Assembly: GCA_965263165.1 (NCBI GenBank)
Contig: OZ253584.1
Location: 1,138,401-1,202,400 of the forward strand
DNA from: Dehalococcoidia bacterium
Lineage (GTDB): Bacteria; Chloroflexota; Dehalococcoidia; Lucifugimonadales; SAR202-VII-2
Reading direction: 5' to 3'
Length of the DNA: 64,000 bases
Shown here: piece by piece, positions 1-12,225 of the stretch
Layout of the letters: every line of letters begins with the position of its first letter
How positions within the stretch are numbered: position 1 is the first letter of the stretch
Translations under genes and position numbers: made by a program
Notes under the pieces: generated by a model
What the model was told of the DNA's origin: nothing
Seen by the model: the letters and a program-made list of their open reading frames with translations, nothing else
The model's database searches: none

Positions 1-1
1 C

Positions 2-382
2 AGCTTTGACGCCGGGTTCGGAACCATCTTTCTGGCCCGGGTCGTTGGGGAGAAGAAAGCGCGGGAGATATGGTACCTCTGTCGTCGCTACTCCGCCGAA
101 GAGGCCCTGCAGATGGGTCTGGTGAACAAGGTGGTGCCGCCGGAGGAGCTGGAAGACGAGGTGATGGCCTGGTCGCAGGAGCTTCTGCAACGAGGGCCCA
201 CGGCCCTGCGCTTCCTCAAACACTCATTCAATGCGGACACCGACCACGTCTACGGCATCCAGAACCTGGCCCACGGCGCAACGTCTCTCTACTACACCAC
301 CGACGAGTCCAAGGAGGGTACGAACGCCTTTCGAGAGAAACGGGCTCCAGACTTCTCAAAGCACCGCTCTCACCCCTGGTAG
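2..382 (+). CDS. menB: 1,4-dihydroxy-2-naphthoyl-CoA synthase (5' partial, runs off window)
   Basis: Frame 2 reads SFDAGFG...[31 protein letters not shown]...[14 protein letters not shown], the typical MenB C-terminal half; adjacent to menA. Confidence 0.93.
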
Positions 383-388
383 GCAGCG

Positions 389-1324
389 ATGCGTCAGCCT
401 CTATCCGCGACGGCCGGCCCCTGGGAGCGCGCCCGCTGGTGCGCAGGCGTGTGGTACTGGGCAGCTAGGCCTTTCACCCTCACCGCCTCCGTGGTGCCGG
501 TGCTGGTTGGGTCGGCGCTGGCCTTTCAGGAGGGGCGGGCCTTCATCCATCTCTTCATCCTGGCCCTGGCCGCCTCGGTCCTCGTGCAGGTGGGGACCAA
601 CCTCACCGATGAGTTCTCGGACGACGCCAGCCCTGAAGCCCGCGGCCAGAAGCTCCTGGCGCCCTATAAGGTCATTGCCCTGGGTCTGCTATCGAATCGC
701 GCCGTAAGGTTGGGAGCGGTTGTCAGCTTTGCCGTTGCTACGGGAATCGGGCTGTACATCGTGACGGTGGCCGGTTGGCTCATCCTGGTCATCGCCGCGG
801 CCAGCCTGTTGGTGGCCTATCTCTATGCGGGCGGTCCCAAGCCCCTGGGAACCGTCGGGTTGGGCAACCCGCTGGTCTTCGTGTTCATGGGGCCGGTCAT
901 GGTGATTGGAGCGCATTACGTCCATGTGCGCGAGGTCACGATGGATGCCTTCTGGGTGTCGCTGCCGGTGGCCTGCCTGGTGACGGCCATCCTGGTGGCC
1001 AATGACCTGCGCGACCTGGAGGAGGACCGCATCGCCGGAAAGACGACGCCGGTGACGTTGTGGGGCCGGACCTTCGGCCGGTGGCTGTGGACAACCCTTG
1101 TTGCCGGAGCGTTCGCGGCTGCTGTAGCCTTGGCGGCCATCGGCGGGCATGGCCCGTGGCCGCTTCTGACCGGCGTGGCCCTCTATCCGGCCTACCGCGC
1201 CTTTAGGGGAATCTGGGGGGAGGAGACGCGTCCCTCGCTGGCCGTAGTCTTGCGCAACTCGGCGAGGCTGCACTGGTGGTTTGGCGTACTGTTCGCCGCG
1301 GGTCTTGCGCTGGGGAGGATATAG
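389..1324 (+). CDS. menA: 1,4-dihydroxy-2-naphthoate polyprenyltransferase (UbiA family)
   Basis: ARPFTLTASVVPV, NLTDEFSD, YAGGPKPL and ANDLRDLEEDRIAGKTT motifs; multi-TM; follows menB. Confidence 0.9.
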   Translation: MRQPLSATAGPWERARWCAGVWYWAARPFTLTASVVPVLVGSALAFQEGRAFIHLFILALAASVLVQVGTNLTDEFSDDASPEARGQKLLAPYKVIALGLLSNRAVRLGAVVSFAVATGIGLYIVTVAGWLILVIAAASLLVAYLYAGGPKPLGTVGLGNPLVFVFMGPVMVIGAHYVHVREVTMDAFWVSLPVACLVTAILVANDLRDLEEDRIAGKTTPVTLWGRTFGRWLWTTLVAGAFAAAVALAAIGGHGPWPLLTGVALYPAYRAFRGIWGEETRPSLAVVLRNSARLHWWFGVLFAAGLALGRI

Positions 1325-1325
1325 A

Positions 1326-2537
1326 CTAGCGCCGCTCGAAGATGGCGGCGACCCCTTGGCCGCCGCCAACGCACATCGTCTCCAGGCCATAGCGCACGTT
1401 CCGGCGCTCCATCTCGTGGAGCAGCGTCGCCAGGATACGGGCGCCGGTGGCCCCGATGGGGTGCCCCAACGAGATTCCCGACCCGTTGACATTGACGATG
1501 TCCTCGTCCGGCAGCTGCCACTCCCGCAACACCGCCAGCACCTGTGCCGCGAATGCCTCATTCAACTCAATAAGGCCGATGTCCTCGAACGACAGGCCCG
1601 TTCTCTCGAAGACGCGCTGCACGGCTGGGACCGGGCCGATGCCCATGTAAGCCGGATGCACTCCAGTTGCTGCCCATCCAACCAGGAAGGCCATGGGTTC
1701 TAGGCCGAGTTCCTCGAGTCTGTCCGCCGCGACAACCAGGCAGACAGAGGCGGCGTCGTTCTGTGCGCTGGCGTTGCCCGCGGTGACCGTGCCGCCTTCC
1801 GTGGCCGGCGCAAGCCTTCTCAGCGCCTCCAACGTGGTGTCCGCGCGGGGTCCCTCGTCCCGGTCGACGATGAGCGGCTCGCCCTTGCGTTGCGGCGCGG
1901 GCACAGGGGCGATTTCGTTTGCGAACCGACCGGCTTCGGCGGCGGCGACTGCCCGTTGGTGGCTGCGCAGGGCGTAGGCGTCCTGGTACTCGCGGGGGAT
2001 CTCGTATTGCTGGGCCAGGTTCTCCGCCGTCTCGATCATGCCTGAGATGTGCCCGAAGCGCTCCTCCGGCGATACCGTGGCCCTGGCGCGGGTGAGGCGG
2101 TCGTGGAGGGTAACCGAGCCCAGCCGGCTGCCCCAGCGGGCGTTGGTGGTGTAGTGCTCCACGTTACTCATGCTCTCCACCCCTCCGGCAACGACCACGT
2201 CGGCATTGCCGGTCTGCACGAGCATCGCTGCGTTGATGATGGACTGGAGCCCAGAGGCGCAGCGCCGGTCCAACTGGTGCCCCGGCACTTCGATGGGAAG
2301 GCCTGCCTTGAGGGCGGCTAGCCGCCCGATGGAGGGGTTCTCGCCGCTGGGATAGCCGTGGCCCAGGATGACCTCATCCACGCGGGCGGGGTCGAGGCCG
2401 GTGCGTTCCATGAGAGCGCGAATGGAGAGGGCGGCCAACGCATCAGCGGGGACATCGCGCAGGGCGCCGCCGAATTTGCCGACGGGCGTTCGCAGAGGAG
2501 AGACGATGGCGGCGTCGCGCCCAGCGTTCGACTGCAT
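1326..2537 (-). CDS. Acetyl-CoA C-acyltransferase (thiolase)
   Basis: CASGL nucleophile, NEAFA, GHPIGATG and CVGGGQG motifs. Confidence 0.95.
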   Translation of the reverse strand: MQSNAGRDAAIVSPLRTPVGKFGGALRDVPADALAALSIRALMERTGLDPARVDEVILGHGYPSGENPSIGRLAALKAGLPIEVPGHQLDRRCASGLQSIINAAMLVQTGNADVVVAGGVESMSNVEHYTTNARWGSRLGSVTLHDRLTRARATVSPEERFGHISGMIETAENLAQQYEIPREYQDAYALRSHQRAVAAAEAGRFANEIAPVPAPQRKGEPLIVDRDEGPRADTTLEALRRLAPATEGGTVTAGNASAQNDAASVCLVVAADRLEELGLEPMAFLVGWAATGVHPAYMGIGPVPAVQRVFERTGLSFEDIGLIELNEAFAAQVLAVLREWQLPDEDIVNVNGSGISLGHPIGATGARILATLLHEMERRNVRYGLETMCVGGGQGVAAIFERR

Positions 2538-2540
2538 GCT

Positions 2541-3554
2541 CTAGCCTTCGCCCAGGCCCAGCTTTCGGCGCAGGTTGTCCTCGATGCGATTGATCTCATT
2601 GTCCGAGCCGAGCATTTGGTCCAGGAACGGCTTGGAGGGATATCCAGTCTCTATTTCCGCCTGGAGCTCCTCAGCGAAGGCGCCGCTCTGAATGTCCTTC
2701 ACAGCCTCGCGCATGCTGTCCGCCATGACGTCCCTATCCACGGCCATGGTCCGGGTCATGCCGCCGAAGGCGGCGGCATACCCGTGGAGGTAGACGGAGC
2801 GAAAGAAGCCGGCGTCGGCCATGGCCTGGAACGTTTTGGACATCTCCCCCGAGAGATACATTTCCAGGAGCAGGCCCTCTGGAGGCAGGCCCGCCTCTAC
2901 GCCCACTTGGAAGGCCGCAAGGATGGCGGCGCCCAGCCAGGGTCCCAGGGCCTGCTCGCCGAACAGGTCGAGGTTGGCTTCCTGTTTGGCGCTGAGGTGG
3001 AGGGCGCCTCGTCTCAAAGAACCTGCCGCTTTGGCCACGGCCAGCAGTGTCGGCCAAGCGTTGCCTGTGGCGTCCTGCTCCACCGAGACGTAGCTCAGGA
3101 AGCCCTTTTCGGCCAGGAAAAGCTCGCGAATGACGTCGCCGACCATCCTGGGGGCGAACAACAGCACGTCGACGCCCGGCGGTGGTGCGATGAGGTTGTA
3201 GGCTAAGTTGTAGCCGGAGGCGAACAGCAGGGCCGACCCCGGCCGCAGATGGGGTCTGACCGAGGCCTCCATGACTTCAGGCTGGGTCTCGTCGGGCACG
3301 AGGAGGAGCGTCAGGTCAGCCTGGGCAACCGCGTCTGCTATCGGTGAGACCGGGAACCCCTCATTGCCGGCCAAGTCATGGGAGGCGTCATTCCGGCTCC
3401 CCACGATTACCCTGGCCTGTGTGGCGTCCCGAAGGTTGAGCGCCATTGACCTGCCTAGATGGCCGTACCCCACAATAGCGACGGTCTTGCCCGACAGCGC
3501 CGCGATATCTGCATCGGCCTCGCGGAAAACCGGGAGGCCGTCGTTAGACGTCAT
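2541..3554 (-). CDS. Divergent ketol-acid reductoisomerase-like oxidoreductase
   Basis: GYGHLG Rossmann motif and DLFGEQ metal motif; several substrate residues differ from the canonical IlvC at 8437. Confidence 0.85.
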   Translation of the reverse strand: MTSNDGLPVFREADADIAALSGKTVAIVGYGHLGRSMALNLRDATQARVIVGSRNDASHDLAGNEGFPVSPIADAVAQADLTLLLVPDETQPEVMEASVRPHLRPGSALLFASGYNLAYNLIAPPPGVDVLLFAPRMVGDVIRELFLAEKGFLSYVSVEQDATGNAWPTLLAVAKAAGSLRRGALHLSAKQEANLDLFGEQALGPWLGAAILAAFQVGVEAGLPPEGLLLEMYLSGEMSKTFQAMADAGFFRSVYLHGYAAAFGGMTRTMAVDRDVMADSMREAVKDIQSGAFAEELQAEIETGYPSKPFLDQMLGSDNEINRIEDNLRRKLGLGEG

Positions 3555-3960
3555 GGGCCTCCTCCCTGGCCTCGCGGTAGCTGGCTAAGAAGGGGTCGAG
3601 CATGCCGGCGAACTTGCTCAATTTCAGTGGATGCAGGCCTTTCACCTTCAACTTGCCGGTAATGAAGGCCGTGCCGAAGGAGGTGCGACCCCAGGCCGCA
3701 TCATTCAGCGTCGTGCTCGACATGCCAATCGTGATGGAGGGGTTGCCGTCGACGGAAGGGGCGAAGCGGAGCGCTGGGCCCGATTGGTCGGAAACCAGGT
3801 GCACTGCCATCGCCAGATCGTCGAACTCCCACCGCACGGTTTGAAACGCCGCAGCGATGCGCTCGAGCTGGGGAGCGTCCAGCTTTTCGTTGAGCAGCTC
3901 CACGGTGCGGCGAAGGGCGTTTTGAAGCTCTTCTCCGGAGGCGGGCGGGGACTGAGTCAC
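3544..3960 (-). CDS. SCP2 sterol/lipid-binding domain protein
   Basis: C-terminal AFITGKLKVKG motif; overlaps start of KARI-like gene. Confidence 0.75.
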   Translation of the reverse strand: MTQSPPASGEELQNALRRTVELLNEKLDAPQLERIAAAFQTVRWEFDDLAMAVHLVSDQSGPALRFAPSVDGNPSITIGMSSTTLNDAAWGRTSFGTAFITGKLKVKGLHPLKLSKFAGMLDPFLASYREAREEAHDV

Positions 3961-3990
3961 GAGGTGCTCCTGTTAGTTGGATCCTCGACG

Positions 3991-4285
3991 TCAATGAGGA
4001 TAACCCGAACCGGAACCGTGCGGAAATGCCTTTTTAGGCGTTGGATCTGTTGGGCCCCTGAGGTGTTTCTTCTGAGAGTATTTCTGCGGTGCTCTGCCCT
4101 CATCCAAATTGAAGACGTAGTTGTCCGCTTTGGTGAAACATGAGATGACCTCGTATGTTGTAGGGAGGTGAGGTAACGACTGGACCTACAAGGTCTTCAG
4201 GGAGAGACCTAAGAAGCTTCATGCAATCGTCGTGAAGAAGCGCCGCGTCGGCGGTTGGATCGAAAGCGGTCGTCAGATGGCGCAT
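3991..4285 (-). pseudogene. Internally deleted, frameshifted N4/N6 DNA methyltransferase relic
   Basis: DCMKLLRSLPEDLVGPVVTSPPYNI (motif IV), then in another frame YEVISCFTKADNYVFNLDEGRAPQKYSQKKHLRGP, normally much further downstream in beta-class MTases. Confidence 0.75.
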
Positions 4286-4309
4286 GGAGAACTCGGGGCT
4301 TGCTGATTG

Positions 4310-5266
4310 TTAGATGGGTGGCTTGCTGCCTGCCCCGTCCCGGTAGGCCTCCAGGGCCTCTCTGGAGCTCCTGAGGATGGCCAGTCCAAGGGCATTCTTG
4401 ATTCTGTCGTTCGAGGCTACCCACGGATACCGGATAAAGTCAATACCGGCGCCGGGGGCGTCGGCGACCTTGGACAGCCCCACACCCCATAGCAGGCTGG
4501 TCGCTGGGTAGAGCATCCAGCTTGGGATGGGCACAAGGCGCTTGCCCAAGATGTGCGCCACCTCCGACAGCGACACCGTTCCATCGCCTGTTAGGTTGTA
4601 CACTCCTGGGACCCGTTCCGTGATGCACCTGGCCATGATGTCAGCCAAGTCATCCTCATGGATGAACTGGAGAGGCGGGTCCGATCCGGGTATGCGAGGG
4701 AAGAACGGCTTGCTGAACCATCCTTGCACGGCGCTGCCCCCGCCGGGCCCGACCACGGGGCAACCCCTGAGCAGCGTGAGCGACACCGCCGGCGTCTCAT
4801 TGGCGAACCGGCGGGCCATGGAGTCCCCCTCCGCCTTATCGTGCGAGTAGGGGAACCGCGCGTTGGGCATCAGCGGGGAGTCCTCTGTGAACAGGGGGGG
4901 ATTCTCCGGGTGCGCCCCGTAGGCTGCTGTGCTGCTGAACCACACAACGTGCTTGACCGAAGAGTCCGAGCAGGCTTCCACCACCCGTTGCGCTCCCCCT
5001 ATGTTGACGCGCCGGGCGCGAGCCCGGCCCCAGCGGGTCGGCGCCAGGACGAAGGCTAGGTGGACAACGGTGTCGATGCCCCACCGGGAGAGGTCGTCGG
5101 CCAGCCTCTGAAGGATGTCGCTGGTGACGGCCTGAAGCTTGGGATGCTCAATGCGAGGAGGCTTCCGGTCCACGCCCACCACGAGCTCGACGTCAGGATG
5201 ATCGAGGAGCCGGGGCAAGAGCAGGTTGGCGATGTAGCCGGACGAGCCGGTGACCAGAATTCGCAT
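4310..5266 (-). CDS. NAD-dependent epimerase/dehydratase (extended SDR)
   Basis: ILVTGSSGYIA, SSTAAYG and YSHDK (YxxxK). Confidence 0.9.
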   Translation of the reverse strand: MRILVTGSSGYIANLLLPRLLDHPDVELVVGVDRKPPRIEHPKLQAVTSDILQRLADDLSRWGIDTVVHLAFVLAPTRWGRARARRVNIGGAQRVVEACSDSSVKHVVWFSSTAAYGAHPENPPLFTEDSPLMPNARFPYSHDKAEGDSMARRFANETPAVSLTLLRGCPVVGPGGGSAVQGWFSKPFFPRIPGSDPPLQFIHEDDLADIMARCITERVPGVYNLTGDGTVSLSEVAHILGKRLVPIPSWMLYPATSLLWGVGLSKVADAPGAGIDFIRYPWVASNDRIKNALGLAILRSSREALEAYRDGAGSKPPI

Positions 5267-5329
5267 GGCGGAAGTTGAGACCCTCGCCTAACCGGGGCCG
5301 GTTATCCGTCCCGCCGCTGCGGAGGTCCC

Positions 5330-5670
5330 GTTTGTGCGTAAAGGCGTGACTGCCAGTGAAGGAGCGGCGCCAGCGGCGTAGCTAATCCGGCACACCCGGG
5401 CGTCACAGTTGCCACGCCTCCGGCACGGTTCGCGACGCCTTTGTCCACTTTCCAGCCGGCCCCCGAAGCGAGGTGTCCCGTAGCCGTCGCGTAGCCGGGA
5501 CCTTGCGTCGCACAAGGAATGGGCCGCCAGGCCACTGCTTGACCATCTGCTTTTCCGCCTTCCATATGCCCTATACCCTGCAACTCGCTGCATCCCGGCT
5601 CCAAGAGAGAGTGGGCCGCTGGCCCACTGCTTGACGATACTCTAGCACAAATGTCCTTATTCTGCAAGAG
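5330..5670 (-). repeat. Solo divergent copy (U5) of the repeated promoter cassette
   Basis: Minus strand TTGCAG-17bp-TAGAGT followed by GTGGGCCAGCGGCCC...TTGGAGCC, matching the leaders at 18504-18585 and 53720-53802. Confidence 0.65.
5639..5667 (-). promoter_or_regulatory. Sigma70 promoter with LexA-like box (cassette U5)
   Basis: TTGCAG aataaGGACatttGTGC TAGAGT; 17 bp spacer and extended -10 TG. Confidence 0.55.
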
Positions 5671-5704
5671 GGAGGGGGCCGGCGGCGGCTTGTTCAGAGC
5701 ATCC

Positions 5705-5887
5705 CTAGGCCGGCGCGAACTTCGCGGGATCCTGCTCGAATTGGCGCTTGCAGCCCGGAGCGCAGAAGTAGTAGGTGCTGCCCTGGTGTTCCGAGGTTCC
5801 GCCCGGGGGCTTGGCGGTGTCGACCTCCATATGGCAAATAGGGTCGATGGCAATGGTCGTTTTCTTGGAGAAGAATGGGATGCGCAT
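5705..5887 (-). CDS. YHS domain protein
   Basis: IDPICHMEVD...YYFCAPGCKRQFEQDP. Confidence 0.9.
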   Translation of the reverse strand: MRIPFFSKKTTIAIDPICHMEVDTAKPPGGTSEHQGSTYYFCAPGCKRQFEQDPAKFAPA

Positions 5888-6057
5888 AATCCTCCTGAAC
5901 GGTAAGCCTTATCGGAATGAGTTTCGCCTAGCATAGCAGTAAACTCAAGCCCGGCGGCGCCCAGCGGCATTGCGCCTGCCGGCAAGATTGCTGAGTTTGC
6001 CTACGCCTGCCCCGTCAAGTAGCATGGCGCTCAGGGATGCTCTGGGAGGACAACGCT

Positions 6058-7134
6058 ATGAGCGCTATGCAGAAGGACGTTGGTGAGCAGTTGGAGGAGT
6101 TGTACCTGGACCTCGCCAGGGAGCACCTTCAGCCCCTATGGACCCAGGAGCGGGACCTGGTCCCCTGGAGCCCCAAACCCGCGGCCGTTCCCTGGCTGTG
6201 GCGTTGGAAATCTCTTCAGGCCTTGGCGACCCGCAGCGGTGAACTCGTAACGCTGGACCGCGGCGGCGACCGGCGAGTGATCATGATGTCCAACCCCGGA
6301 CTGGGAGGCAAGCCCTTCGCTACGCCGACGTTGATGGGGAACATCCAATTCCTGGGGCCGCATGAATCGGCTCCGGCCCACCGCCACTCGCCAGACGCCA
6401 TTCGCTTCGTGCTTCAGGGCGAGGGGGTCTGGACGACCGTGGAAGGCGACGCCTGCGACATGCACCCCGGCGACCTGGTGCTCACCCCCAATTGGACCTG
6501 GCACGACCACAGCAACGACACCGACGACCCCATGATCTGGTTCGATGGGCTTGACGTTCCAACGGCCCTCGCGCTGGACGCAACCTTCTTCGAGCTCTAC
6601 CCGTCCGACCTCCAGCCTCAGCCAACCGTGCATAACCGCTCGACCCGGACTTTCGGCGGGCGCGGCCTGTTGCCCCTGGACGCGGCCGATTCCTCCCGGA
6701 ACCACTCGCCGCTGTTCATCTATCGGTGGGCTGACACCGAGGCGGCCTTGGACGCCATGCTGGAGGAGCAGGGCGGCCCCATGGTCAGCCTTCAGTTCGT
6801 CGACCCCACCAGCGGGCGTCCCGTCCTGCCGACCATCGGGTGCGAAATGCATCGGATTGTGCCCGGCGGGAGAAGCAAGCCCGTTAGGAAGGTGGGCAAC
6901 TCGGTATTCGTCGTCTATCGGGGTTACGGGGCAAGCGTCATCAACGGCCAGCGCTTCGATTGGGGTCCCGGCGACTCGTTCGTGACGCCCTCTTGGGCGG
7001 TCGTCGACCACGAGGCCAAGGCCGCGGCTGACGTGTTTGCCATCACGGACCGGCCGGTGTTGGAGGCGTTGGGGCTCTACCGCGAGGAGTCGCTGGACGA
7101 GCCGCAGGAAATCGTCTCCCGGTTCGATCGTTAG
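6058..7134 (+). CDS. Gentisate 1,2-dioxygenase-family bicupin
   Basis: HRHSPDAIRF and PNWTWHDH Fe-binding motifs, vestigial C-terminal cupin; GGAGG RBS before ATG 6058 (ORF track start 6037). Confidence 0.85.
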   Translation: MSAMQKDVGEQLEELYLDLAREHLQPLWTQERDLVPWSPKPAAVPWLWRWKSLQALATRSGELVTLDRGGDRRVIMMSNPGLGGKPFATPTLMGNIQFLGPHESAPAHRHSPDAIRFVLQGEGVWTTVEGDACDMHPGDLVLTPNWTWHDHSNDTDDPMIWFDGLDVPTALALDATFFELYPSDLQPQPTVHNRSTRTFGGRGLLPLDAADSSRNHSPLFIYRWADTEAALDAMLEEQGGPMVSLQFVDPTSGRPVLPTIGCEMHRIVPGGRSKPVRKVGNSVFVVYRGYGASVINGQRFDWGPGDSFVTPSWAVVDHEAKAAADVFAITDRPVLEALGLYREESLDEPQEIVSRFDR

Positions 7135-7210
7135 CGCGCGTTCCACCTGCGCCCTGCCGGTCTGCGTCGCTCCGCCCGCAACGACAACCACCTGATCAAC
7201 AGGAGGCCCC

Positions 7211-8410
7211 ATGCTCCCCCTGGAGGGTATCACCGTCCTTGATCTGTCTCGCCTTGCCCCCGGCCCGTACTGCACGATGGTCCTGGGCGACCTGGGCGCG
7301 GACGTGCTGCGCGTAGAGCAGCCGGGAGGCGGCGCGCGGCAGCAACGGGAGCGTGAAGCCGAGGGCGGAGATGCCGAGGCCAAGGAGCGCAGGGAGGCGG
7401 CCTTCAACGCTCTGTTGCGCAACAAGCGGGCCATTGGCCTCAACCTCAAGGACGGCGCCGCCCGAGAGATCTTCTACGCTCTGGCTCGTACGGCCGACGT
7501 GGTGGTGGAGGGCTTCAGGCCCGGGGTGGTGAAGCGGCTGGGCGTTGACTACGAGACGGTGAAGGGCATCAACCCAGGCATCGTGTACTGCTCCATCAGC
7601 GGGTACGGCCAGGACGGCCCCTATCGTGACCTGGTGGGGCACGACATCAACTACATCTCATTTGCCGGCGTGCTTGGCGCCATAGGCCCCGACCCCGACC
7701 AGCCGCCAACGATCCCGCTGAACTTCTTGGCCGACTACGCCGGCGGCGGCATGCTGGCGGCAACTTCGATTCTGGCGGCGTTGCGAGTGAGGGACAAGAC
7801 GGGCAAGGGACAGTACGTGGATATTTCCATGACCGACGGCACGGTCTATCTGGCGGCGCGTCTCTTCTCGGAGTACCTGGCGTCCGGACGTCCTACGGAG
7901 CGGGGCCGCTACTGGCTGAGCGGGGCTTCGCCGTACTACAACGTCTACCGGTGCAGGGACGGAAAGTACATCAGCCTCGGCTGCAACGAGCCCTGGTTTT
8001 GGGAAAACCTCTGTAAGGTCTTCGGCCGAGAGGACCTGATACCTGTGCAGTGGGACCGCCCGCGTTGGCCTGAGATGGTCCGGGAGTTCAGGGAGATCAT
8101 GGCCACCCGGACGCAGGCCGAGTGGGTGGCGGAGTTTGAGAAGACGGACATTGCCTACGGCAAAGTCTACGCGCAAGATGAGGTCTTCGACGACCCGCAG
8201 CTTCAGCACCGGCAAATGGGCATTGACGCCGGAGAGGTCAACGGCGAGACGGTGCGCCAGGTTGGCATAGGCCCCAAGCTGTCGGAGACGCCGGGGGCCG
8301 TGCGGAGTCTCGGCGCGCCGGCTGGGGCCCACACGGACGCGGTCCTGAGCGGCCTTGGCTACCCGGAAGAGCGCATCGCAGAGCTGAGAGCGCAGGGAGC
8401 GGTGGGGTAA
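7211..8410 (+). CDS. CaiB/BaiF family III CoA-transferase / acyl-CoA racemase-like
   Basis: VLDLSRLAPGPY, RNKRAIGLNLK, EGFRPGV and GHDINY motifs. Confidence 0.92.
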   Translation: MLPLEGITVLDLSRLAPGPYCTMVLGDLGADVLRVEQPGGGARQQREREAEGGDAEAKERREAAFNALLRNKRAIGLNLKDGAAREIFYALARTADVVVEGFRPGVVKRLGVDYETVKGINPGIVYCSISGYGQDGPYRDLVGHDINYISFAGVLGAIGPDPDQPPTIPLNFLADYAGGGMLAATSILAALRVRDKTGKGQYVDISMTDGTVYLAARLFSEYLASGRPTERGRYWLSGASPYYNVYRCRDGKYISLGCNEPWFWENLCKVFGREDLIPVQWDRPRWPEMVREFREIMATRTQAEWVAEFEKTDIAYGKVYAQDEVFDDPQLQHRQMGIDAGEVNGETVRQVGIGPKLSETPGAVRSLGAPAGAHTDAVLSGLGYPEERIAELRAQGAVG

Positions 8411-8436: not shown

Positions 8437-9438
8437 TTACTCCTCCCACTTCTTGAGGAAGCCCATCATGGCCCGCAGGTCCTTGCCGACGGCCTCGATG
8501 GGGTGCTCCGCCTCTTCCGCGCGCATCTGTAGGAACCGCTTGCGGCCCTCGTCGTTCTCGGCGATCCATTCGCGGGCGAAGGTCCCGTCTTGGATCTCCT
8601 TGAGCACCTGCCGCATTTCGTCCTTGACCCGCTCATCCACGATGCGGGGCCCCCGGGAATAGTCGCCGTACTCGGCGGTGTCGCTGACGGAGTAGCGCAT
8701 GTAGGCCAGGCCGCCCTCGTAGAAAAGGTCCACGATGAGCTTCATCTCATGGAGCACCTCGAAGTAGGCGGACTCCGGTTGGTAGCCGGCCTCCACCAGC
8801 ACTTCGAAGGCGTTCTTGATGAGCGACGTCACGCCGCCGCACAGGACCGTCTGCTCGCCGAAGAGGTCTGTCTCTGTCTCCTCTTTGAAGGTGGTCGCCA
8901 GCACGCCGGCCCTAGTGCATCCCACGCCCTTCCCGTAGGCCAGAGCGATGTCCCTGGCGTTGCCCGACGCGTCTTGGTGAATGGCCAGCAGGCCGGGAAC
9001 GCCGGAACCCTCGGTGAAGACCTCGCGCATGCGGTGTCCCGGCGCCTTTGGGGCAATCATGGTGACGTCCACCTCGGGCGGCGGCACGATTTGCTCGTAA
9101 TGGATGTTGAACCCGTGGGCGAACATGAGCGTCTTGCCAGCCTTCATGTGAGGCTCGATGGACTGGCGATAGATGTCCCGCTGCGCCGTGTCAGGCGCCA
9201 CGATCATCAGAATATCGGATGCTTCGGCAACCTCGGCGACGGTCTTGACGGTTAGTCCCGCCGCCTCCGCCTTCGGCCAACTCTTCGAGCCCTCGTACAG
9301 TCCGGCCAGAACGGAGAGGCCGGTGTCCTTCAGGTTCAGTGCGTGGGCGTGCCCCTGGCTTCCGTAGCCGATGACGCCGATGGTCTTGTCCTGGATGAGG
9401 GACAGGTCTGCATCCTGATCGTAGTAGACGGTTGCCAT
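8437..9438 (-). CDS. ilvC: Ketol-acid reductoisomerase
   Basis: GYGSQG, AHGFNI, APKAPG, DLFGEQ and SDTAEYG all canonical; follows ilvBN. Confidence 0.97.
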
Positions 9439-9587: not shown

Positions 9588-10163
9588 TCACGCCCCCTCG
9601 TAGTCTGTGGGGGCTGTACCCTGAGCTCCATTGGAGCCGGCATGCGACTTGTCCCGCTGGGCCAGCGCGTCCTGCCCTCGCTGCATGGCCAGGCGGCCAC
9701 TGCGCATGACCTCGCGGATGCCGAAGGGTTTCAGAAGCGCCATCAGGGCGTCGATCTTGGCCTCGCCGCCGGTGGCTTCCACGATGATGGCTGACGCCGC
9801 CACGTCCACGATCTTGGCCCTGAAAACGCCGACGATCTCGATGACTTCGGAACGGGACGCGGGAGTGGTCTGCACCTTGATCAGGGCCATTTCGCGGGCC
9901 ACCACCTGGTCCTCCGCGAACTCGGAGATCTTCACAACGTCGATGAGTTTATAGAGCTGCTTGGTGGCCTGCTCCACCGAGTAGTCGTCGCCGTCGATGA
10001 CGAAGGTCAGGCGCGACAGGTGCGGCGTCTCCGAGCGCCCCACGGCCAGGCTGCTGATGTTGATGCCCCGTCGCCGCACCAGGCTCACGACCCGGTTGAG
10101 GACACCGGGCCGGTCCTGCACTAGGGCTGTCAGCGTGTGCTTCCTTTCGGTGTCTATCGCCAC
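9588..10163 (-). CDS. ilvN: Acetolactate synthase small subunit
   Basis: ACT domain QDRPGVLNRV and KQLYKLIDV; follows ilvB. Confidence 0.96.
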   Translation of the reverse strand: MAIDTERKHTLTALVQDRPGVLNRVVSLVRRRGINISSLAVGRSETPHLSRLTFVIDGDDYSVEQATKQLYKLIDVVKISEFAEDQVVAREMALIKVQTTPASRSEVIEIVGVFRAKIVDVAASAIIVEATGGEAKIDALMALLKPFGIREVMRSGRLAMQRGQDALAQRDKSHAGSNGAQGTAPTDYEGA

Positions 10164-11851
10164 AGCGCCGCCTCCACAATGGGGTCTTCCAGCATCTCCG
10201 CGGTGCTCTGGCCGGCGGGAATCATGGGGAAGACGTTCTCCTCCACCTCAACCTGAAAGTCGATCAGGAACGGCCCGTCGTGGGCCATTGCTTGCTCGAT
10301 GGCCGGGCGCACCTGGCTGCGCTCCGTAACCCGCGCCCCCGCCATACCGAAAGCATCGGCCAGTTTCACAAAGTCGGGATTGGTGGTGTACATCGTGGCA
10401 ACGTAGCTCTTGTCGTAGAAGAACTGCTGCCACTGGCGCACCATGCCGAGGCAGTTGTTGTTGATGACGGCGAATTTCACGGGGATGTTGTTCTCCATCA
10501 TCGTTGCCAGCTCGTACATGGTCATCTGGAACCCGCCGTCACCGGCCACAGACCACACCTGCAGGTCGGGCCTGCCGACTTGGGCGCCCATGGCCGCCGG
10601 GACCTCGAAGCCCATGGTGCCGAGGCCGCCGGACGTGTGGAACCTGTTGGGGTGGTTGAACTTGAAGAACTGGGCCGCCCACATCTGGTGTTGGCCCACG
10701 CCGGTGACCACCATGGCCTCGCCGCCGGTGGCCTCGCAGATCTCCTGGATGACGTGTTGGGGCAGTAGTTTGTCCGAGTCATCGGCGCGCGCCAGGGGAT
10801 GCTTCGCCTTCAGCTCGTCGATTTCCCTGAGCCACTGAGGATGCGTCTTGGTCGGCGCCTGCTTGTTGAGCTGGGTCAGCACCCGCTTCAGGTCCCCCAC
10901 GATGGGGACCGTCGGAGGCACGTTCTTGCCGATCTCCGCCGGGTCGATGTCGATATGGATGATCTTGGCCTTCTTGGCGAAGTCGCTGAGGCGTCCCGTG
11001 ACGCGGTCGTCGAAGCGCATGCCCAAGCCTAGGATCAGGTCCGCCTCGTCGATGGCCAGCGAAGCGTAGGCCATCCCGTGCATGCCGGGCATCCCCAGAT
11101 AGAGCACGTGACTGGTGGGGAACGAGCTCACGCCCAAAAGCGTCGTGATCACCGGTATCTGGGCCTTCTCCGCCAATTCCTGCAACTCTTCGTGAGCGTT
11201 GGAGATGGAGACGCCGTGACCTGCCAGGATGAGGGGCCGCTCGGCCTCCTCGATGAGCTTGACTGCCCGCTTGATCATCGTGGGATGGCCGTCCATGACG
11301 GGCTTGTAGCCGGGCAGGTCGATGTCGTCCGGGTACGCGAACTCGGCGACCTCCGCCTGCACGTCCTTGGGGATGTCCACCAGAACGGGCCCCGGCCTGC
11401 CGGTGCGGGCGATGTAGAACGCTTCCTTCATGGCGCGCGGTATCTCCGCCGCATTCATCACCAGGAAGTTGTATTTGGTGATGGGCAGCGTTATGCCGGT
11501 GATGTCGGTTTCCTGGAAGGCGTCCCGCCCAATGGCGGGGCGGCCCACCTGCCCGGTCACGCAGACCAGCGGCACGGAGTCCATCTGCGCGGTGGCGATG
11601 GCTGTCACAAGGTTGGTTGCGCCGGGTCCGGACGTGGCCCAGGCTACACCCACTTTGCCGGTGGCCCGGGAGTAGCCCTCCGCAGCGTGGCCCGCTCCCT
11701 GTTCGTGACGGGTCAGGATGTGGCGGAGCTGAGGGTACTCGGGCAACGTCTGGTACAGGGGAAGAATGGCCCCCCCCACAATCCCAAAGATGGTGTCCAC
11801 TCCCTCCCTGATGAGGCTTTCGCAAACCATCTGTGCTCCCGTGAGCCTCAT
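10154..11851 (-). CDS. ilvB: Acetolactate synthase large subunit, biosynthetic type
   Basis: MRLTGAQ start after AGGAGGAG RBS; RHEQGAGH, TSGPGATN, GQHQMW and GDGGFQM motifs. Confidence 0.97.
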   Translation of the reverse strand: MRLTGAQMVCESLIREGVDTIFGIVGGAILPLYQTLPEYPQLRHILTRHEQGAGHAAEGYSRATGKVGVAWATSGPGATNLVTAIATAQMDSVPLVCVTGQVGRPAIGRDAFQETDITGITLPITKYNFLVMNAAEIPRAMKEAFYIARTGRPGPVLVDIPKDVQAEVAEFAYPDDIDLPGYKPVMDGHPTMIKRAVKLIEEAERPLILAGHGVSISNAHEELQELAEKAQIPVITTLLGVSSFPTSHVLYLGMPGMHGMAYASLAIDEADLILGLGMRFDDRVTGRLSDFAKKAKIIHIDIDPAEIGKNVPPTVPIVGDLKRVLTQLNKQAPTKTHPQWLREIDELKAKHPLARADDSDKLLPQHVIQEICEATGGEAMVVTGVGQHQMWAAQFFKFNHPNRFHTSGGLGTMGFEVPAAMGAQVGRPDLQVWSVAGDGGFQMTMYELATMMENNIPVKFAVINNNCLGMVRQWQQFFYDKSYVATMYTTNPDFVKLADAFGMAGARVTERSQVRPAIEQAMAHDGPFLIDFQVEVEENVFPMIPAGQSTAEMLEDPIVEAALWR

Positions 11852-11954
11852 GACGACTCCTCCTTTCTGCTGCACGCCATGCGTTGCGTTGAGCGACGCC
11901 GGCGCCTTTGCCGATGCCCTTAACTGTAGCCGCTTCTCTTTACGAAATCCAACA

Positions 11955-12225
11955 TTAAAGAAAACCGCCTCATCCACTCAAGGGACGAGGCGTTAGCTCG
12001 CGGTGCCACCCTTGTTCCCCGGCGCCGCCGGGGCACTCGTGTTCAGCGCATCTGCAATGCGCCCGCCTCTGGTAACGGGTGGCGTACCCGGCTCAGGCTA
12101 CTCGGTCCTCTTGGGGCCGTTCACCCTGCGGCTCGGGAGGCACGTTCGACGAGTTCTGCGGCGTCCGCTCACACCGTACCGGACTCGCTGGGCCCAGAGC
12201 TCTCGTCTACTCCTCTCCGTCGTCG
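11955..12225 (-). promoter_or_regulatory. T-box riboswitch leader of ilvBN-ilvC, probable Leu (CUC) specifier
   Basis: Minus strand AAGGGTGGCACCGCG T-box at 11999-12013, antiterminator partner CTCGTCCCT, terminator CGCCTCGTCCC...GATGAGGCG followed by TTTTCTTT; GAA-CTC-G specifier at 12151-12153. Confidence 0.88.

Follow-up and report, generated by a model that had tools for sequence, protein, structure and literature searches.

The window analysed here is a 64,000-nucleotide stretch (positions 1,138,401 to 1,202,400 of contig OZ253584.1, assembly GCA_965263165.1) from a Dehalococcoidia bacterium of the SAR202-VII-2 lineage. It carries two genes for proteins with the fold of ketol-acid reductoisomerase (KARI). 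One is the housekeeping ilvC, found in an ilvBNC operon. The other, the subject of this work and called KARI-like below, overlaps a gene for a small SCP2-type lipid carrier. The genes of immediate concern are the following.

1326-2537, reverse strand: thiolase (acetyl-CoA C-acetyltransferase, PRK06205 type; 650 bits, above the cut-off of 551)
2541-3554, reverse strand: KARI-fold paralogue of 337 residues, 'type B1', with the motifs GYGHLGR, FASGYN, APRMVG, DLFGEQ, LEMYLSGEM and HGYAAAFGG
3544-3960, reverse strand: SCP2-like lipid-carrier gene (PF02036), 138 residues, with a GTG start and an AGGAG ribosome-binding site
8437-9438, reverse strand: canonical ilvC, class I KARI, housekeeping copy (549 bits with NF004017, above the cut-off of 336)
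9588-10163 and 10154-11977: ilvN and ilvB, next to the canonical ilvC (ilvBNC operon)

The open reading frame coordinates agree with a first-pass annotation made from the letters of this DNA, which had described a KARI paralogue overlapping an SCP2 gene, 3 nt from a thiolase and 5 kb from the canonical IlvC. The SCP2 and KARI-like genes share 11 nt, the SCP2 stop codon running past the ATG of KARI-like, and 3 nt separate the KARI-like stop from the thiolase ATG. Both overlapping genes have Shine-Dalgarno-like sequences, and the overlap suggests that they may be translationally coupled. The SCP2 assignment was supported by a PF02036 score of 26.3 bits, above the cut-off of 21.3, and by an atlas feature score of 0.95 to SCP2 clusters.

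KARI-like scored 156 and 67 bits with the Pfam models KARI_N and KARI_C, the corresponding values for the canonical IlvC of the window being 240 and 222 bits; the two proteins are 35% identical. KARI-like fell below all the NCBIfam equivalog cut-offs for KARI (NF004017, 226.6 against 336; TIGR00465, 201.3 against 226.15; NF009940, 166.8 against 406), and the canonical IlvC reached 549, 443 and 437 bits with the same three models. An AlphaFold2 model of KARI-like (pLDDT 91) superposed on KARIs and on the KARI-family enzyme BurG with TM-scores of about 0.9. KARI-like thus shares with class I KARIs (IlvC, EC 1.1.1.86; Staphylococcus aureus structure 5W3K and the IlvC of the window) the KARI_N plus KARI_C fold at a TM-score of about 0.9, the GxGxxG site and the Asp and Glu ligands of two Mg2+ ions. 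It differs from them by its low identity (30-38%), a 2-residue insertion between the last two Glu residues, its location outside the ilv operon and its pairing with SCP2.

The motif changes listed in the first-pass annotation are all present: AHGF is replaced by ASGY, APKAP by APRMV, GYGSQG by GYGHLG and SDTAEYG by GYAAAFG, while DLFGEQ is kept. Two details had to be amended. Both glutamates of the downstream 'E..E' are kept as claimed, but the insertion turns E-x3-E into E-x5-E ('LEMYLSGEM'), and GSQG, taken for a substrate contact, is instead the dinucleotide-binding cofactor loop. Alignment mapping showed that the five acidic residues of the metal site are retained (E192, D196, E200, E231 and E237). 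Asp190 and Glu194 are Mg2+ ligands in the S. aureus enzyme, SaKARI (PMC13753588), and KARI-like keeps their equivalents together with the cofactor site. On the other hand, three of the eight canonical polar active-site residues are changed, His to Ser113, Lys to Arg136 and Ser to Gly258, and all three replacements are invariant in the subfamily. The polar E. coli residues probed by mutagenesis, His132, Lys155 and Ser414, occupy the positions that hold Ser, Arg and Gly in KARI-like.

Residues invariant in 38 representatives include S113-G114 (at the canonical His-Gly position), A134-P135-R136-M137 (at the canonical APK position), E192, D196, E200, Q201, E231, Y233, S235-G236-E237-M238, H257-G258 and G264-G265. 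As ASG, APRM, SGEM and HG..FGG show little or no variation among these members, at 48-86% identity, the re-patterned motifs are not random drift. The description of the gene as a KARI-derived paralogue with an altered active site is therefore upheld, the re-patterning of the substrate side being coherent and conserved next to a canonical ilvC in ilvBNC.

A database search yielded more than 120 proteins with at least 50% identity to KARI-like. We searched 1.8 billion representatives and sorted the relatives by motif into three classes: canonical KARI, type A and type B. Type A is a grade defined by ASGY / APRM / Y.SGE / HS.TSQYG and includes 'putative KARI 2' of Sulfolobus solfataricus (Sso-KARI, PDB 6jcv and 6jd2). 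Type B shares the first three motifs, but has HG..A.[FY]G instead of the fourth, i.e., Gly instead of Ser. Its full signature is ASG[YF] / APRM / E[LM]Y[LM]SGEM / HG-x-x-A-x-[FY]G, and the window protein matches it. Sso-KARI is the best sequence match of KARI-like in the PDB, with 203 bits, and has ASGY, APRM and the Y-x-SGE insertion; it differs in keeping, like type A in general, the Ser of 'HS-x-T-SQYG', where type B has 'HG-x-x-A-x-[FY]G'. In an IQ-TREE phylogeny, the 21 type B rows grouped as a single clade (SH-aLRT 97) inside the type A grade, and the canonical KARIs formed a clade of their own (SH-aLRT 99). The window gene lies in the type B clade, apart from the canonical KARIs.

Relatives are encoded in at least 239 genomes, as determined by a pattern scan with one genome per species, and 80 loci were kept for neighbourhood analysis. 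They come from Dehalococcoidia/SAR202, Anaerolineae, many Planctomycetota, Acidimicrobiia, Frankiaceae, Geodermatophilus, Modestobacter, Rokubacteria, Methylomirabilota and others. The subtypes of type B are as follows.

B1, HG[YF]AA[AS][FY]G: SCP2 gene upstream in 33 of 37 loci; hpnH present in 17 of 19 tested genomes
HGL (actinobacterial), HGL[VS]A.YG: within hopanoid operons; hpnH present in 11 of 11
B2, HGAVAQYG or HGPTA..: no SCP2; hpnH mostly absent

An alternative count of carriers by profile bit score was discarded. It gave seven type B carriers among 401 Chloroflexota genomes, of which the six that were retrieved turned out to be type A ('HS.TSQYG'), only G000 being type B, and the figure of 3/7 for hpnH derived from it was dropped.

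The association with SCP2 proved to be a conserved trait. In 38 of the 80 loci, from Planctomycetota and Dehalococcoidia alike, the gene immediately upstream of KARI-like encodes an SCP2 homologue, and the short overlap between the two genes recurs in gene-called contigs. In addition, three KARI-like proteins (P0013, P0015 and P0026) are natural fusions with an N-terminal SCP2 domain. The linkage to SCP2 claimed in the first-pass annotation was thus confirmed by the neighbourhoods. A type A protein, P0150, carries a C-terminal SCP2 domain. Other C-terminal additions in type A proteins are an NTF2-like Lumazine_bd_2 domain (P0176) and a class II aldolase fragment (P0140), and from these three proteins we conclude that hydrophobic-ligand domains recur across the whole non-canonical KARI grade.

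The thiolase gene, in contrast, follows KARI-like only in the two closest genomes (L009 and L010, with orthologues of 97% and 86% identity) and in none of the other 78 loci. Since SCP2 recurs and fuses whereas the thiolase is restricted in this manner, the conserved unit consists of SCP2 and KARI-like, with the thiolase as a lineage-specific neighbour. The 'SCP2-thiolase operon' initially described does not hold as a general feature, the thiolase being an ordinary PRK06205-type enzyme, although it is probably co-transcribed with KARI-like in this lineage. A role of the thiolase as an entry point into mevalonate and hopanoid synthesis was ruled out, as the genome has no HMG-CoA reductase but has IspH; because isoprenoids come from the methylerythritol phosphate pathway in this genome, the thiolase does not supply their synthesis.

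Hopanoids rank among the major membrane lipids of bacteria, and in fossil form they are biomarkers in wide use. Neighbour clustering combined with Pfam and NCBIfam scans located the KARI-like gene inside hopanoid operons in 10 actinobacterial loci. The gene-called contigs L093, L096 and L098 have the order hpnC-hpnD-hpnE-IDS-shc-hpnG(-ispH)-hpnH-[SDR]-KARI-like or ...hpnH-KARI-like-SDR, and their hopanoid clusters contain no aminotransferase gene. In L098 the genes are fully co-directional, with a gap of 46 nt between hpnH and KARI-like. Locus L031, from a planctomycete, has on one strand and in this order shc (above cut-off with 508 bits) and the genes for an HAE3 RND transporter, SCP2 and KARI-like, and the order RND-SCP2-KARI-like is found in three more planctomycete loci. 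We considered whether this transporter is HpnN and rejected that identity, as the scores were only 90-101 bits against a cut-off of 752; the HAE3-family label was kept. The window's own genome contains the cluster IDS-hpnH-hpnG-hpnA-shc-hpnC-hpnD at C1:120-128 kb, 1 Mb from the KARI-like pair, and with this full cluster ribosylhopane should be made there.

We then compared the occurrence of the family with that of hpnH. The hpnH gene is present in 18 of 20 B1 genomes (17 of the 19 tested and the window's own) and in all 11 genomes with the HGL subtype, as compared with 71 of 401 sampled Chloroflexota (18%) and 37 of 121 sampled Planctomycetota (31%). Two unpublished genomes, G040 and G047 (loci L072 and L085), account for 2 of the 36 genomes with hpnH and for 2 of the 10 adjacency loci, and the hopanoid conclusions hold without them; the few unpublished genomes in the phylum samples affect the background tallies only.

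The actinobacterial KARI-like genes occupy the same operon place as genes of the known hopanoid side-chain enzymes HpnH, HpnG and HpnO, right after hpnG and hpnH. They differ from these in that the folds are unrelated, that the KARI-like family has no hpn name or model and that it occurs in a minority of hpnH-bearing genomes. In Streptomyces, ribosylhopane is reportedly consumed by HpnO, and the enzyme that converts it to bacteriohopanetetrol (BHT) is described as 'not yet established' (PMC12583986). Within the searchable library, we found no paper on this family and none that connects a KARI homologue with hopanoids, nor is the family mentioned in a 2025 survey of hopanoid-associated genes. 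A side observation concerns locus L045, where a type A KARI-like gene with an upstream SCP2 gene is followed at 1 kb by an HpnA-like gene (L045:10048-10905) whose score of 250 bits is below cut-off. That genome yielded neither hpnH nor a clear shc.

Other neighbours recur as well. Twelve actinobacterial loci, some with hpn genes and some lacking them, have an aldehyde dehydrogenase gene convergent with KARI-like and directly downstream of it (L042:2307-3968, L060:8988-10667, L096:9274-10761 and 9 more); this fits an aldehyde- or aldose-type substrate and proves nothing. In Dehalococcoidia (loci L028, L029, L037, L039, L048, L051, L052 and L059 and one more contig), the SCP2/KARI-like pair comes after a conserved series of genes for MtnA-like (IF-2B), PNP_UDP_1, rhodanese, S-adenosylhomocysteine hydrolase and S-adenosylmethionine (SAM) synthetase (MetK) proteins. 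This gene run before the pair corresponds to SAM recycling and salvage.

Canonical ilvC was detected above cut-off in 32 of the 46 carrier genomes. Five small Acidimicrobiia genomes with a B2 gene (G023, G028, G032, G036 and G038; loci L047, L055, L060, L067 and L070) have no canonical ilvC, shc or hpnH, and ilvD is missing from four of them. The type B gene encodes their sole KARI_N protein. As KARI-like is kept in genomes without ilvC and ilvD, the role of the family is independent of branched-chain amino acid synthesis, and in this sub-clade it does not depend on hopanoids either.

From the protein's sequence and gene context, we infer the substrate, the reaction and the role of SCP2. KARI-like may well be an Mg2+- and NAD(P)H-dependent reductase or reductoisomerase that acts on a C35 hopanoid intermediate such as ribosylhopane, with the lipid presented by SCP2, a proposal to which we give about an even chance. 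The SCP2 and KARI-like genes would then form a translationally coupled two-gene module. The protein has retained from KARI the Rossmann NAD(P)H site and the carboxylate cluster for two Mg2+ ions. It has lost the residues that grip a small acid as substrate, most notably the S-x-S loop Ser, whose place is taken by the invariant Gly in the hydrophobic 'HG-Y-AAAFGG'. The loss of this carboxylate-binding Ser in favour of a hydrophobic stretch fits an alpha-hydroxy-carbonyl substrate devoid of a carboxylate.

KARI-like is predicted to reduce, possibly after a KARI-type 1,2-shift, an alpha-hydroxy-carbonyl in the polar head group of a C35 hopanoid intermediate. Ribosylhopane in its open-chain aldehyde form, an alpha-hydroxy aldehyde on a hopane tail, would be the best candidate substrate and would yield a BHT-type polyol. 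SCP2 would bury the pentacyclic hydrocarbon, thereby solubilising the tail, and offer the polar end of the lipid to the soluble enzyme. In the operons, the place right after hpnG and hpnH is the branch point at which ribosylhopane is consumed. More tentatively, and with the balance of our judgement against it in this strict form, SCP2/KARI-like could be a dedicated ribosylhopane reductase or reductoisomerase that fills the unassigned C35 side-chain step in these lineages. Because the full isomerase machinery of KARI is kept, the aldose might then first shift to a C-34 ketone and undergo reduction afterwards, which would set the C-34 configuration and give one of the BHT stereoisomers that serve geochemists as biomarkers.

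Several observations weigh against a hopanoid function. The co-occurrence counts were made over related metagenome-assembled genomes without phylogenetic correction. The pair lies away from the hpn genes in the window's genome and in most loci of Planctomycetota and Dehalococcoidia. Most hpnH-bearing genomes do not have the family, type B being found only in G000 in the Chloroflexota sample with its 71 hpnH carriers among 401 genomes; with so few hpnH carriers encoding it, KARI-like cannot be the enzyme that forms BHT in all of them. Moreover, the family is not uniformly linked to hopanoids, as B2 genes ('HGAVAQYG', 'HGPTA..') occur in genomes without hpnH or shc. Finally, Sso-KARI, the nearest relative with a solved structure, is reported to be a true KARI, active on acetolactate. 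As ASGY and APRM are common to this reportedly active enzyme and to KARI-like, these two motifs by themselves do not prove that KARI activity was lost.

It may therefore be asked whether KARI-like is still a KARI, or a reductase of small 2-keto acids of the acetolactate, ketopantoate or hydroxypyruvate type, in other words an isozyme with an incidental SCP2 neighbour. The five conserved acidic residues of the metal site are compatible with this, as are ASGY, APRM and the 2-residue insertion in common with Sso-KARI 6jcv, and KARIs are promiscuous reductases (PMC4353338). We nevertheless regard an isozyme as unlikely. The Ser found in Sso-KARI and canonical KARIs is an invariant Gly in type B, the pairing with SCP2 is conserved from phylum to phylum and extends to fusions, the gene sits inside hpn operons, it encodes the sole KARI_N protein in genomes without ilvD, and the protein scores below all KARI equivalog cut-offs. 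The first-pass annotation had favoured yet another role, a reductoisomerase that works with the thiolase and SCP2 to break down a branched lipid, a terpenoid or a steroid, CoA esters being possible substrates. The 3-nt gap, which suggests co-transcription with the thiolase in this genome, and the family III CoA-transferase gene at 7211-8410 speak for it. With the thiolase confined to the two closest genomes, no acyl-CoA ligase, dehydrogenase or hydratase gene recurring in the 80 neighbourhoods and the recurring lipid genes being the biosynthetic hpn genes, it seems to us very unlikely. Part of that earlier proposal stands, since a triterpenoid (hopanoid) is the most likely class of substrate, but catabolism does not, the context being hopanoid side-chain biosynthesis.

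It may also be that the enzyme recognises an alpha-hydroxy-carbonyl or aldose head group that is not specific to hopanoids, such as a 5-substituted 5-deoxyribose from radical-SAM or SAM chemistry or another isoprenoid lipid bound by SCP2. Hopanoid use would then be a lineage-specific specialisation, and not necessarily that of this gene. The SAM-salvage genes before the Dehalococcoidia pairs, the convergent aldehyde dehydrogenase genes of the 12 actinobacterial loci irrespective of hpn genes, the B2 sub-clades in genomes devoid of shc or hpnH and the class II aldolase fragment on one type A relative all agree with such a function. It is less easily reconciled with the presence of hpnH in 18 of 20 B1 genomes and with SCP2, which implies a large hydrophobic moiety, and no direct link to salvage genes was found in this window. 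We consider this broader function rather unlikely.

The hopanoid proposal has a precedent in BurG, a repurposed KARI that acts as cyclopropanol synthase in malleicyprol synthesis (PMC9359912). BurG (PDB 7PCC) is the top fold match of KARI-like, with a TM-score of 0.91 and 36% identity, a resemblance seen in the fold comparison. As is proposed for KARI-like, BurG was recruited from primary metabolism to a new substrate while the canonical ilvC stayed in the branched-chain amino acid operon. BurG differs in its substrate, the sulfonium acid gonydiol, and in its setting, a gene cluster for a polyketide toxin with neither an SCP2 partner nor a hopanoid context, and no genes of the gonydiol/malleicyprol cluster were present in the KARI-like neighbourhoods examined. 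As for SCP2, the proposed arrangement resembles UbiJ and UbiT of ubiquinone synthesis and the SCPx thiolase-SCP2 proteins, in that a small SCP2 protein would hold an isoprenoid lipid for a soluble enzyme. The partner here is a KARI homologue and not a hydroxylase or a thiolase; furthermore, the thiolase of the window is not of the SCPx type, and its link to KARI-like is not conserved.

We know of no gene for those BHT stereoisomers that serve as tracers. For the conversion of ribosylhopane to BHT, a concrete candidate is offered by this KARI-derived enzyme, conserved and unnamed, which has a lipid carrier of its own and, in actinobacterial operons, is encoded right after hpnG and hpnH. If this is true, KARI-like would join BurG as the second clear example of a KARI scaffold taken from amino-acid synthesis to a different substrate, here a membrane lipid. 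The finding is also a warning that the name 'ketol-acid reductoisomerase' is probably wrong for thousands of database entries.

The remaining genes around the pair are the following.

389-1324, forward strand: menA-like prenyltransferase, convergent with the thiolase gene
4310-5266, reverse strand: extended-SDR gene (NAD-dependent epimerase/dehydratase family; PF01370, 93 bits)
6037-8410, forward strand: bicupin gene and family III CoA-transferase gene (the latter at 7211-8410), between the SDR gene and ilvC

No tie between the KARI-like finding and the menA-like, bicupin and CoA-transferase genes was seen, and promoter and terminator scans of positions 1-6200 of the window gave nothing above chance. 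The SDR gene lies 350 nt upstream of the SCP2 gene and its product scored only 27 bits with the HpnA model. Relatives of it are encoded 1-2 kb from the KARI-like gene in L009, L010, L045 and L087, and the SDR gene of the window is a possible accessory gene. Between the SDR and SCP2 genes, a short open reading frame (4100-4290, reverse strand) encodes about 60 N-terminal residues resembling an N4/N6 DNA methyltransferase, including the motif '...VVTSPPYN...', followed by a stop codon. This frame resembles the remnant of a gene, a hint that the SDR-SCP2 junction once underwent an insertion or a rearrangement.

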